Part shown: piece by piece, positions 2,225 through 10,534 of the stretch
How the letters are laid out: every line of letters begins with the position of its first letter
Position numbering within the stretch: position 1 is the first letter of the stretch
Source of the DNA: Octopus sinensis
Taxonomy: Eukaryota
DNA: 14,949 bases
NCBI RefSeq assembly: GCF_006345805.1
Contig: NW_021825697.1
Coordinates: 1 to 14,949, forward strand
Direction of reading: 5' to 3'
Program-made: the position numbers and the translations under genes
Notes under the pieces: model-generated
Seen by the model: only the letters and a program-made list of their open reading frames with translations
What the model was told of the DNA's origin: nothing
Database searches by the model: none

Positions 2225-3072
2225 ATAGTGTAATAAATAAAATATATCCATACATACAAACATATATGTACGTACCTACATCTACATGTACATATACATG
2301 CATATATAATATATACGTAAGTACAGGACACCACAACTAGACGTAGAACTCAACGAGAAACGGAAACGGAAAAACAAGCATTTTTTTACAACAGAAAAAC
2401 AGAGTACAAGACAAATTACACAAGGAAAAATCCCCTTCATCAGCTGTCTCTAGTTCAACTCAAGCGTGTTTCGAAGGTACCTTCGAAACACGCTAGCCAA
2501 ATCTACTTCCTTTTTACATGCGGCCTTCAAACTGTGAACACACATTTGCTTTCCCTTGCGCTGCCAGAATCTCCTCCGTCTAAGCCAGAAAAAGGCCTTT
2601 TCGTTTGTTTTCTTGTTTATTTTCTCGTATTGTATTTTCTTGTACATGTATTTTTATCTTATAATTTATTTTGTATTTTTATTTGTATCGTTTTTACGTC
2701 CTGTTTGTGTTACATTTTTTTTCTTTCTTGTTTTTACTCCTCTGCGAAGTAATTTCATTTTAATTCTCTCGCAGGAAGGGCTAGTTTCGACGAGTCGTGT
2801 TCTGTCTTACCTTCGAAACACGCTAGTCGAACTAGAGACAGCTGATGAAGGGATTTTTCCTTGTCTAGTTTTTCTTGTACTCTGTTTTTCTGTAGTAAAA
2901 AAATGGTTTGTTCCATGCTTGTTTTTCCGCTTTCGTTTCTCGTTGAGTTCTACGTTTAGTTGTGGTGTCCTGTACTTACGTATATATTTATATATGCATG
3001 TATATGTACATATAGATGTAGGTACGTACATATATGTTTGTATGTATGTATATATTTTATTTATTACACTAT
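2225..3072. mobile_element. Inverted pair of a non-coding, ribozyme-motif-bearing repeat (Penelope-like terminal repeat candidate) flanked by (TA)n
   Basis: 2225-2479 is an imperfect reverse complement of 2808-3072. A perfect 32-bp palindrome sits at 2463-2494. CTGATGA and CGAAAC motifs occur in both arms, and a diverged relative lies at 9340-9610. Confidence 0.7.
2796..2852 (+). ncRNA. Candidate rearranged (non-circularly permuted) hammerhead ribozyme
   Basis: CGUGU-U (2796-2801) pairs with GAAA-CACG (2815-2822) as stem III. CUGUCU (2802-2807) pairs with AGACAG (2836-2841) as stem I, directly before CUGAUGA (2842-2848). Stem II is weak: (A)GGG with CCUUC. Confidence 0.6.
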
Positions 3073-3326: not shown

Positions 3327-4606
3327 CGAGGGGCGTTCAATAAGTAATGCCCATGACCCACTTCCCATAGCAGTAGAGCAACGAAACTTGGCACAGTTAT
3401 TAGTCTTTTTCTACATAGCAACCACCCAGAGTTACGCATTTCTCCCATTGTTTGATGCAGCTCTGGAGACCGTTTTTGTAGAAGAACCCAGCTTGGTCCT
3501 CCAACCTTAACGTGACTTCAGAAATCAAGGCTGCATCATCTGGGAAACGCTTTCCTTTCAAAAACAACTTCATGACTGGGAAGAGGGGAAAATCAGAGGG
3601 TGCAAGGTCAGGAAAGTAGGGGGATGGGGGAGGTGTTCATAGCCATACGCCTGTGCTTCTGATCTGGCGACAAGCGAGCTGTGGACCGGAGCGTTGTCCT
3701 GCAGGAGGAGGATGCCTTTGCTGATCTTGCCCCGCCTCTTGATTTTGATAACTTTCCTCAAAAGTGATGCATAATAGGCTCCTGCAATTGTGGTACCATT
3801 TGCCATGAAATCTGTCATCACTACTCCGTCCTGGTCCCAGAAGATTGTGAGCATGACCTTGCCAGCGGAGGGCTGCACCCTTGCCTTCTTTGGAGGGGGT
3901 GAGTCACGGGGCTTTCACTGCATTGACTGGGCTTTGGTCTCTGGATCATCGTGATGGACCCAGGTTTCATCCTGTGTAATCAGTCTTTTAAAAAATGTTG
4001 ACTCATCTTCTTGGCACATCTCCAAATTCACCCTCGAGCACTCGACGCGTTCTTGCTTCTGGAAAGGCGTGAGCAACCTGGGAATCCATCTGGAAGACAC
4101 CTTTTGCATATGCAAATGGTCATGATGATGATATTTTCCACAGACCCGGTACTAATCTTGACCTCATGGCTATTTGGCGAATAATTATGCGTCGATCTTC
4201 CAAAATGGCAGCCTCAACTTGACGGACAGATGCCTCATCAATGGCAGAAGGGGCGACCAATCTGGGAGCTGTTTCCACAGAGTTCCGACCATGTTTGAAT
4301 TCACGATGCCAGCGTTTTACAAGTCATATGATGGGGCATCATCACCATAAGTTACTTTCATTTCATCAAAAGTCTCCCGTGGTGTGCGTCCTTTCAAATA
4401 CAAAAACTGGATCACTGCTCGACACTCAACAGGCTCCATTTCACACTTGACTCGGTTCAGACACCTGTAAATCAGAAACCACAATTAATTCAGAGCTGTA
4501 ATTTGCCACTTACTCTATAGAGATATAAATGATTGCACATACAAAATTTCAGCTAGATCAAACTAGTGCAAGTGGGTCAGAGGCATTACTTATTGAACGT
4601 CCCTCG
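3327..4606 (-). mobile_element. Full-length mariner (Tc1/mariner) DNA transposon, 1280 bp
   Basis: 37-bp TIRs at 3327-3363 (CGAGGGGCGTTCAATAAGTAATGCCCATGACCCACTT) and 4570-4606, with 3 mismatches. TA duplication at 3325-3326 and 4607-4608. Confidence 0.95.
3400..4439 (-). pseudogene. Frameshifted mariner transposase (DD34D type)
   Basis: Starts MEPVECRAVIQFLYLKG. Motifs WIPRLL, ITQDETW, LLQDNAPVH and a frameshifted PDLAPSDF are present. Ends WEKCVTLGGCYVEKD*. The sequence is split over several frames. Confidence 0.92.
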
Positions 4607-4746
4607 TATATATATGTTTACATGCAAAAATTCTGCCTTGCACAGAATAAAAATATTAAGAATTAAAGAGGTTGAAGAAAAGTATTACAAAACCAACAGC
4701 TGTTTCTGGGGGCTGGGTGGTCCAAAATTATGTTTGTAATTATTAT

Positions 4747-6113: not shown

Positions 6114-6155
6114 CCACTACAATCGTTTCTTGTCTTGATCGACAATCTTCAGTGG
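6114..6155 (-). ncRNA. Minimal type I hammerhead motif (stem I one base short)
   Basis: Minus strand reads CCA-CUGAAGA-UUGUC gaucaa GACAA-GAAA-C gauu GUA-GUGG. Confidence 0.55.
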
Positions 6156-6673: not shown

Positions 6674-7043
6674 GGCGCAGGACTGGCTGTGTGGTAAGTA
6701 GCTTGCCTACCAACCACATGGTTCCGGGTTCAGTCCCACTGCATGGCACCTTGGGCAAGTGTCTTCTACTATAGCCTCGGGCCGACCAAAGCCTTGTGAA
6801 TGGATTTGGTAGACTGAAACTGAAAGAAGCCCGTCGTATATATGTATATATATATACTAAGCAATTAAGGGTTTAGCAACGAATTGCCTCACCACACACC
6901 GAATTTAGAAATAGCAGTCAAAGAGTTATAGCTATTCTTTCTACTGAAAGGGAGATCTCAGTAAAAACACAGCACTTGAAAGGCAAACACAGACAGGTAA
7001 GAGAGAATGAAATGACGGCAATCTATCATACAATTTTAAGTCA

Positions 7044-7134
7044 CCTACGGACGTACGTTTCGAAATTAAGTTTTAGGAAAGCATAAGAACTAGATAATTA
7101 TATCTTACCCAACTTCTTTTCTCATCAGCGTAGG
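7044..7134 (-). ncRNA. Type I hammerhead ribozyme
   Basis: Minus strand reads CCUACG-CUGAUGA-GAAA[long stem II]UUUC-GAAA-C GUAC GUC-CGUAGG. Perfect 6-bp stem I, palindromic stem III ACGUACGU and GUC triplet. Predicted cleavage between 7050 and 7049. Confidence 0.85.
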
Positions 7135-7626
7135 ACACTACAATTATGAATAATTGTATATTAAATTTCGAGATACTAGAAGGTATCATCTCAACTCAGT
7201 ATCAGAGCGAGCCAAAGCCGTTACCAGTATCACCAAATTCAAAGTGTGAATGAAAGTTTGTGTCACCAACCCCTTCCCACCAGCGTGTAGCCAAGACAAG
7301 ATGCTGTGGTCATTTACTGGGATGAAATATGGTTATCAGTAACAATATAGGGTGAAATTAATTAATTTGGAATAATCATTAATTACACCAAGTAGATTTC
7401 GGCATGTAAAAGCCTCATTCGAGGAAAGTTTAAGTAATACTAAGCAATTAAGGGTTTAGCAACGAATTGCCTCACCACACACCGAATTTAGAAATAGCAG
7501 TCAAAGAGTTATAGCTATTCTTTCTACTAAAAGGGAGATCTCAGTGAAAACACAGCACTTGAAAGGCAATCACAGACAGGTAAGAGAGAATGAAATTACG
7601 GCAATCTATCATACAATTTTAAGTCA

Positions 7627-7717
7627 CCTACGGATGTACGTTTCGAAATTAAGTTTTAGGAAAGCATAAGAACTAGATAATTATATCTTACCCAACTTCT
7701 TATCTCATCAGCGTAGG
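7627..7717 (-). ncRNA. Type I hammerhead ribozyme, second copy with stem II and stem III mismatches
   Basis: Same as 7044-7134, except GAAACGUACAUC (AUC triplet, C-A mismatch) and GAUA at the stem II base. Confidence 0.7.
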
Positions 7718-7732
7718 ACACTACAATTATGA

Positions 7733-7784
<52 letters not shown>

Positions 7785-9313: not shown

Positions 9314-9339
9314 TTATACATATATATATATATAATACA

Positions 9340-9610
9340 TAAATAATATATAAATATATGCATACATACATATATGTACTTACCTACATATGTGTGTGTA
9401 TATATATATATATGCATATATGGGTACAGGGCATAAAAAAAACGTTGAACACAATAAGAAACTAAAACATAAAAACAAAAACATCGAAAACGAAATTTTT
9501 TTGAACAACGAAAAAAGCAAACGGAGAAACGAGACATGCAACATAAAGAATACTCCCCTTCATCAGTTGTCCCTGTCTCATCTACTCCGCGTTACGAAGG
9601 TAAGGACAAC
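9340..9610 (-). mobile_element. Diverged copy of the 2225-2479 / 2808-3072 family, truncated in the rearranged hammerhead
   Basis: Shares ACATATATGTAC.TACCTACAT, GTACAGG, CCCCTTCATCAG.TGTC and CGAAGGTA with 2225-2479. Confidence 0.7.
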
Positions 9611-9902
9611 ATATATATATACACACACATACATATATATATACATATCTATATATCCACTCACACACATACTCACACAAACAGACACGCACATAAAGTT
9701 TCTCTTTATTTAAGCATCACCATATTGTTGTCGCTTTTAGTATTTCATATAGCGAGAAACTTTGAGTCGCAAAACTGTTAACCTTCAGCTTTGAAAGAAT
9801 AAGCCCCTTCTAGTTATATGTGAACTATCTTTTCTTACGTCTTAATATTCAACCGATATAGATTCAAAACATTGACTTATCATATTTTTCGTTATTTTGC
9901 AG

Positions 9903-10327
9903 TGACATCCACCGTATCCAGCATTCTTACACTGACAGTCATCGCATGCGACCGCTTCTTCGGCATTGTTTTCGCTCTAAAAGCACACATCGCAGAACGG
10001 CGTGCTTGGTATGCCATTGTCTTGCTCTGGATTATCGCCATTGTGGTGGCAGCACCGCTGCTCTACGTCAGACGCCTCTTCATGACGAAATGGGCCAATC
10101 ATACGGAACGATTCTGTACAGACGATTGGACTCTCGTTACAAACAGTATGAACGCGATGAAGGCAAGACGCATCTACTACACTTTTGTTTCAATTGTGCT
10201 TTTCTTTGTTCCTGTACTAGTTATGTCCCTTGCCTACGCCATGATTATTTGGAAGTTGTGGTCGGCGCAGATTCCAGGTGAGAGGCTGGAAACGGAAAAC
10301 AGGAACCAACTTAGAGTGAAACGCAAG
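9903..10327 (+). CDS. Internal exon of a class A (rhodopsin-like) neuropeptide-type GPCR, TM3 to ICL3
   Basis: Acceptor TTTTTCGTTATTTTGCAG at 9902 (phase 1) and donor AAG/GTAATA at 10327 (phase 0). Translation shows SILTLTVIACDRF (DRY-like), TM4 LW...AAP, an ECL2 Cys, TM5 FFVP...AY and a basic KRK. General resemblance to QRFP/NPFF/orexin-type receptors, but orthology is not determinable by eye. Confidence 0.9.
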
Positions 10328-10534
10328 GTAATAATTATAACTTGTAAAAAAAGACATTTATTTCATTCGTTTAATGACTTTATAGATTGTACTGGCACGG
10401 TTTTTTATACAACTATGTATGTGCGTGTCATTTGGGAGTGAGTGTATGTGTGAGTGTATTTGTAAGTGTGTGTTTGACACGGACTGACTTTTGCCAACCT
10501 TTGTCAAAGACAGACATTTGTTTCATTCGCTTAA

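Follow-up and report, generated by a model that had tools for sequence, protein, structure and literature searches.

The window analyzed here, a stretch of 14,949 nt of Octopus sinensis DNA (NCBI RefSeq assembly GCF_006345805.1, contig NW_021825697.1), carries on its minus strand a repeat copy that begins where a rearranged hammerhead ribozyme (HHR) would be predicted to cut. Does the family to which this copy belongs record self-cleavage of an element RNA before its reverse transcription, and by which fold would the RNA be cut? The copy consists of the following features:

9330..9609, minus strand: truncated copy of a non-coding, Penelope-like repeat (subfamily 2); 5'-truncated, with an approximate 3' end that grades into (TA)n
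9604..9609, minus strand: UUGUCC (9609-9604), the stem I strand 3' of the predicted cut and the 5' end of the copy
9601..9603, minus strand: UUA spacer (9603-9601) between UUGUCC and CCUUC
9596..9600, minus strand: stem II strand CCUUC, with C11.1 as last base; its upstream partner is missing here
9588..9595, minus strand: core strand GUAA (9595-9592; GAAA with A13U) and stem III 3' strand CGCG (9591-9588), whose partner is missing
9573..9580, minus strand: 3' strand of a helix bridging stems I and II, with one change relative to the subfamily majority; partner missing
9560..9572, minus strand: stem I 5' strand GGACAA (9572-9567) and CUGAUGA (9566-9560)
9544..9559, minus strand: bases after CUGAUGA (AGGGG, 9559-9555), predicted to form their own hairpin and not stem II
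9610..9620, unstranded: (TA)n flank at the 5' junction, with a G at 9610 on the minus strand

The original prediction had read UUGUCC, GUAA, CGCG, GGACAA, CUGAUGA and AGGGG on the minus strand of 9555-9610, and the sequence is as quoted. CGCG and GGACAA are separated by 15 nt on this strand; this linker has diverged, as stated, but its last 8 nt belong to a conserved helix as one of its two strands. The match to intact sisters breaks off at 9609/9610, where (TA)n begins, again as described, and the boundary is ambiguous by 2 nt because the preceding bases of the sisters (U, A) look like the (TA)n flank. In intact subfamily-2 sisters, UUGUCC is immediately preceded by the strand missing here, which supplies the stem III partner and a GUA triplet. 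The window copy has neither a hairpin termed P0 nor the upstream stem II strand, and the UH strand and one half of the bridging helix are absent as well; since these strands are missing and A13U is present, the copy cannot be active, which agrees with its earlier classification as inactive. Judged by its sequence, it is a dead member of a non-coding Penelope-like repeat family, truncated at its 5' end. Chance similarity does not account for it, because it has thousands of candidate relatives in the genome and a 25-nt subfamily-2 motif gave 246 exact genome matches versus 0 for the reversed control. A first look at the genome returned 3274 subfamily-2 candidates, and the 40 that were scored had 88-93% identity to the query. 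An Rfam scan at E<=10 returned no hammerhead match anywhere in the window. An exon of a rhodopsin-family G protein-coupled receptor (GPCR) is found at 9903-10328 on the plus strand (Pfam 7tm_1, E 6e-21); the copy sits about 290 nt upstream of this exon on the opposite strand and is probably intronic.

Other copies of the repeat in the window belong to subfamily 1, one of them with the complete motif:

2490..3072, plus strand: subfamily-1 repeat body; the unit measures 813-841 nt in tandem arrays elsewhere, and the 3' end is at (TA)n
2742..2774, plus strand: hairpin P0 of the intact copy, ending directly before G10.1
2775..2779, plus strand: upstream stem II strand of the intact copy, starting with G10.1
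2781..2801, plus strand: bridging helix 5' strand, internal loop, stem III 5' strand and GUU triplet of the intact copy; the predicted cut lies between 2801 and 2802
2802..2848, plus strand: stem I', 2-nt linker, stem II', GAAA, stem III, bridging helix 3' strand, stem I and CUGAUGA of the intact copy
2225..2479, minus strand: inverted, 5'-truncated subfamily-1 copy, with its 5' end about 6 nt 3' of the predicted cut

The GUU triplet is uncommon in natural hammerheads. The inverted copy and a short forward piece meet in a fold-back palindrome at 2461-2496, both beginning at the linker after stem I', and the forward piece joins the subfamily-1 unit body via a 5-nt shared word.

In the intact copy, stem I is formed by CUGUCU (2802-2807) and AGACAG (2836-2841). 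Examination of both copies bore out that two double substitutions separate this stem from UUGUCC/GGACAA and that pairing is kept. A duplication artefact was considered as the source of this difference and rejected, because intact sisters show matching changes on both strands. To place the two copies in a wider frame, 271 candidate segments were grouped into 26 clusters of >=2 members; 13 consensuses containing the whole motif were used, and the other 13 clusters, which were truncated, redundant or unrelated, were dropped. The strand order is hairpin P0, a stem II strand with G10.1 first, the bridging helix, stem III-UH-stem I', a short linker, stem II'-GAAA-stem III, the bridging helix and stem I-CUGANGA. 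The claim of a rearranged HHR is thus borne out: the arrangement is non-circularly permuted, in S-G-C order.

All helices of this fold keep pairing across the subfamilies. The compensatory change in stem I extends to the 13 consensuses, with 56 Watson-Crick and 1 G-U among 60 pairs and 10 distinct variants, and none of 20000 partner shuffles, which ignore descent, was as good; stem III has 37+1 of 40 pairs, equaled by 3 of 20000 shuffles. The last pair of stem I, examined in 91 copies that have the cleavage strand, was U-A in 11, U-G in 6 and C-G in 16 and 23, and it was unpaired in 16, a subfamily trait. Because U-G occurs beside U-A and C-G, the compensatory path in stem I has a wobble intermediate. 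The core strands are kept as well: CUGANGA is present in 13/13 consensuses (it was also a selection criterion), GAAA in 12/13, the 9555-9610 copy having GUAA, and the NUH triplet in 13/13, as GUA, GUU, GUC, AUC or AUA (U16.1 was required in the selection, whereas H was free and is never G). The 9555-9610 copy has no such triplet.

A further helix bridges the far sides of stems I and II, with 66+2 of 72 pairs in 12 variants; the pairing scores of this helix, of P0 and of the upstream strand are partly circular because all three were located by a best-pairing search. The bridging helix adjoins the stem I and stem II strands with gaps of 0-3 nt, the linker from stem I to stem II measures 2-5 nt, and P0 abuts the upstream strand with a gap of 0 in 10/13 consensuses. 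In the predicted structure of 2740-2865, P0 is formed, the bridging helix occurs together with stem III, and the bases after CUGAUGA make a hairpin of their own; its folding z-score of -1.5 is unremarkable. The internal loop between stem III and the bridging helix has opposing GA steps on its two strands in one Naiad-type copy (L297) and in others of this type. We take this loop to fit, by eye, the kink-turn pattern in the Naiad-type family (3-nt bulge, tandem G-A), and the subfamilies of the window to fit it only loosely.

The helices could also form between two RNA molecules or tandem units, with stem I-CUGAUGA supplied by one and the rest by the next, instead of in a knotted monomer. Tandem arrays are present, the monomer requires two pseudoknots into one loop, and minimal hammerheads of Penelope-like elements (PLEs) have been proposed to act as dimers in the part of the literature available to us (PMC4209133). 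However, the bridging helix flanks the stem I and II strands as closely as a monomer requires, and cleavage has been published for SGC and CSG monomers that have this bridging helix (PMC10085705). We therefore regard pairing in trans as very improbable.

The identity of stem II determines which kind of hammerhead this is. The block order of cleavage strand, GAAA strand and CUGAUGA strand corresponds to type SGC as described in the accessible part of Eckert et al. 2023 (PMC10085705). An ordinary type-SGC hammerhead would pair CCUUC with the GGGG that follows CUGAUGA and leave one A unpaired, as was implied when AGGGG was quoted as part of the motif. This register (+1) gives G-C, G-U, G-U and G-C in subfamilies 1, 2 and 5, so that a downstream stem II would be possible in the window's own subfamilies, and PLE hammerheads in which a base is left unpaired at the 5' end of stem II have been described (PMC4209133). 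Across the variants, however, the bases after CUGANGA reach only 4+3 of 30 pairs in register 0 and 10+4 of 30 in register +1, the latter no better than shuffles; the register fails in the Naiad-type and fourth groups, and these bases form their own hairpin in the predicted structures. The upstream strand, one of those placed by best pairing, provides 23+1 of 25 pairs, with G-C at 10.1-11.1 in 5/5 variants; it has only these 5 distinct variants, and its shuffle test is marginal (1012/20000 as good). It sits 22-27 nt upstream of the predicted cut, after P0 and before the bridging helix. The assignment of AGGGG to stem II was consequently abandoned, and an ordinary type-SGC fold has little chance of being correct.

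Because the stem II partner is the upstream strand and not the bases after CUGANGA, the hammerhead core appears to be opened between A9 and G10.1, a break that was assumed to be impossible in the available text of Eckert et al. 2023 (PMC10085705). The predicted fold is therefore SGC-like and not type SGC, its block C not being intact. As far as that text goes, it shares with type-SGC hammerheads (HRIMA-1 and variants) the S-G-C order, the short linker between stems I and II, the extra helix joining these stems and all core bases; here, in contrast, block C is split and the stem II strand has moved 5' behind a hairpin. The type-SGC examples came from metatranscriptomes and none from genomes of known organisms, whereas the octopus motifs are genomic repeats in an animal. 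Type-CSG hammerheads, represented by two metagenomic sequences in the part of PMC10085705 consulted, are a circular permutation of the same knot; in them CUGANGA runs straight into stem II, where the octopus fold opens the chain. That the split-core topology lies outside the six published hammerhead permutations is a claim we hold at slightly better than even odds, jointly with the activity and 5'-end reading given below. In the openly accessible articles searched, neither a split-core hammerhead nor a permuted hammerhead of a Naiad is described.

If the fold cuts RNA, the places where copies end should carry its trace, and the original prediction had expected a peak of 5' ends at the first stem I nucleotide. 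The 5' ends were sampled with motifs starting at CUGANGA, in genome order, covering 91/246 matches of subfamily 2, 74/552 of subfamily 1 and 73/1651 of subfamily 4 (n=238); 1 subfamily-2 and 4 subfamily-1 rows, all read-through, were left out, and tandem and duplicated copies were not merged. Ends fell exactly at the predicted cut in 5/238 copies, within 3 nt of it in 18 and in the interval -22..+3 in 79, whereas 144 copies read through. Going upstream, the number of ends per 1000 nt at risk was 3.3 (-42..-23), 16.4 (-22..-4), 16.8 (-3..+3), 3.9 (+4..+25) and 2.4 (+26..+90). There is thus no one-base peak at the predicted cut in this sample, the rate there being that of the 19 nt just downstream (p=0.89). 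Instead, end frequency forms a plateau over the 22 nt 3' of the cut, whose -22 edge was chosen after seeing subfamily 2, followed by a 5.8-fold drop upstream (p about 5e-19). Fits with a free edge placed the upstream edge at +2 in subfamily 2, at 0 in subfamily 1, where it is poorly constrained, and at +3 in subfamily 4, which was sampled after the other two. The drop persists in AT-only contexts (28.5 vs 4.9) and in G/C contexts (18.2 vs 3.6); TA microhomology was accordingly rejected as the cause of the plateau. In the Naiad-type group, 19/20 copies holding the G and C blocks also hold the cleavage strand and so read through, these copies having been chosen for their last 34 nt; this counts against cleavage as the source of the ends.

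Since ends pile up just after the predicted cut, the RNA likely cuts itself before being copied, and the plateau with its upstream cliff supports the predicted cleavage, followed by trimming. The idea that self-cleavage shapes 5' ends therefore survives in the form of the six-fold drop at the site, but not in that of the expected peak. A conserved, non-catalytic RNA structure derived from a hammerhead, which binds or protects the reverse transcriptase (RT), could instead make ends pile up by RT stalling or template switching inside it. Such a structure would fit a plateau instead of a peak, the majority of copies that read through, the GUAA copies that also end near the site, and head-to-head fold-back junctions inside the motif (at 2461-2496 of the window and in loci L059, L113, L163, L179, L241 and L286). 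It is at odds with the low end rate (3.3 per 1000) at the point of first contact between RT and stem I with the bridging helix, and with a rate that remains high over the final bases of stem I', for which the partner strand has by then been copied. Nor would it predict a drop at the scissile bond in three families of different sequence, or the conservation of CUGANGA, GAAA, UH and G10.1-C11.1 across families and phyla. We consider this main rival unlikely.

The preferred reading, to which we assign a probability of roughly two in three, is that intact members keep a hammerhead fold split between A9 and G10.1 and that, ahead of reverse transcription, the element RNA is likely cut by this fold at the first base of stem I. 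In the proposed sequence of events, the element RNA would be cut at this base, a Naiad-type RT/endonuclease would prime at (TA)n about 250-280 nt downstream, RT would run off the cut 5' end, and 0-22 nt would be lost from the cDNA as it is joined to the target. Read-through and tandem copies would stem from templates that were uncut, had a mutated core or were re-ligated into multimers or circles.

Copies with altered cores bear on this reading. U at position 13 was found in 12/59 sampled subfamily-2 sisters, and A-to-U changes at other A columns did not exceed 12.5% (median 0); because U13 recurs above the level of other A columns, A13U may have been inherited from a template. In a tree of 86 subfamily-2 copies, GUAA required 9 changes compared with 11.7 after shuffling, with only 5/83 branches supported. 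The window copy and two sampled copies with GUAA end at or just after the predicted cut. If GUAA was inherited, the end of the window copy at the cut was not made by self-cleavage in cis. The single copy, put forward as independent evidence for self-cleavage, loses this role, given that U13 is recurrent in the subfamily and that a template with a GUAA core is predicted not to cut itself. In subfamily 2, GAAA is broken in 31/63 copies overall, and its AAA in 28/50 read-through copies versus 3/13 copies ending at or after the cut (p=0.06). Cores were intact in 54/55 read-through copies of subfamily 1 and 40/40 of subfamily 4, and broken cores are almost absent from both end classes there; read-through therefore does not need a dead core. 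As a separate observation, subfamily-2 columns 22-38 nt upstream of CUGAUGA vary by 8-59% each (>12% at most of them) versus 0-12% in the next 21 nt, and this high-variation zone coincides with the 5'-end plateau.

The fold is common to three sequence-unrelated groups; one of these, the fourth group and the largest, was found by a blind descriptor in flanks, and its core pattern has 12,796 matches versus 258 for the control. For subfamily 1, a first look returned 2391 candidates, and a 28-nt motif had 552 exact matches. The subfamily-2 unit is about 715 nt long (tandem spacing in locus L124), subfamily-1 units are non-coding like those of subfamily 2, and units of subfamilies 1, 2 and 4 span 690-860 nt. 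Copies occur as tandems, head-to-head inversions and inverted 5'-truncated copies with (TA)n flanks, and PLEs have been described with this insertion anatomy of tandems, inversions and (TA)n targets (PMC8557442, in part). At the loci examined, no open reading frame (ORF) with an N-terminal GIY-YIG and a C-terminal RT lies upstream of the motifs of subfamilies 1, 2 and 4, and the search for a coding partner of these subfamilies gave none. The RT fragment that adjoins a subfamily-2 copy at L042 was rejected as such a partner: in the full elements GIY-YIG is C-terminal and the 3' UTR differs, which makes the fragment an unrelated neighbor. Loci L091 and L092 represent a PLE family that is young; its open frames span 1044-1120 aa, with GIY-YIG behind the RT, and an inverted partial copy often accompanies them.

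A link to the Naiad PLEs emerges from their 3' ends. In the available part of Craig et al. 2021 (PMC8557442), Naiads are reported to have no canonical hammerhead, and some, including Naiad_Ovul, are flagged 'HHR_half_core'. By eye, the same split fold ends published Naiad consensuses in the parts of File S5 consulted, where record names were taken from the next header or the file order: Naiad_Bfor (with a weak stem I), three Acropora records, Naiad_Obim, Naiad_Ovul and four records without shown names. Seven further passages of these parts, three of them Nippostrongylus by header, fit type CSG by eye with the same bridging helix. One octopus genome group matches the 3' ends of Naiad_Obim and Naiad_Ovul, its motif having 184 exact genome matches. 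This Naiad-type motif lies downstream of RT fragments on the same strand in 8/30 loci, whereas a motif of subfamily 1, 2 or 4 terminates 0/30 of the RT loci within 1.5 kb. No intact Naiad ORF was detected in 20 regions (19 upstream of Naiad-type motifs and 1 at a Naiad 5' motif), which contained one RT fragment, not named by Pfam, and one broken N-terminal piece. The octopus repeats thus share with Naiads, as far as the available part of PMC8557442 describes them, (TA)n targets, partial tandems, inverted 5'-truncated copies and the fold at the Naiad_Obim and Naiad_Ovul ends; they differ in that subfamilies 1, 2 and 4 have no ORF and in that the paper reports no canonical hammerhead.

Animal non-LTR retrozymes (bioRxiv 10.64898/2026.07.22.740005) and PLE minimal type I hammerheads (PMC4209133) likewise come as non-coding units in tandem, each with a single hammerhead, and PLEs are considered to mobilize them. 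Both carry type I (CGS) hammerheads, in contrast to the non-type-I fold of the octopus tandem units. The window also contains a tandem at 6854-7736 (583-nt unit) with type I hammerhead motifs in canonical order at 7711 and 7128 on the minus strand, with a long stem II and one per unit; by its sequence, it is a retrozyme-like repeat. Another repeat family has type I motifs in canonical order, head-to-head at 6152 (minus strand) and 6201 (plus strand), with a CUGAAGA core and a GUA triplet. Terminal inverted repeats flanked by TA bound an element at 3327-4607, which we take to resemble a mariner transposon.

Taken together, the odds are modestly in favor of the wider reading that Naiads and their non-coding dependants carry an active split-core hammerhead that sets the 5' end of many retrotransposed RNAs, recorded as a 5'-end cliff and as an excess of dead cores in read-through copies of an older subfamily; as part of the same joint judgment, the knot would be present in its closed form, CSG, in the Naiads of nematodes. 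New here are the cliff in 5' ends at the level of families and the surplus of dead cores among read-through copies. If true, this reading would explain why a large Penelope-like clade has been reported without hammerheads, would place non-circularly permuted ribozymes, known from anonymous metatranscriptomes, in genomic copies of animals by the thousands, and would imply that the hammerhead core tolerates a chain break assumed to be impossible. What hammerheads do in PLEs is described as unclear in PMC8557442, and the 5'-end cliff offers a testable answer to this question as well as a way to read ribozyme activity from genome copies.
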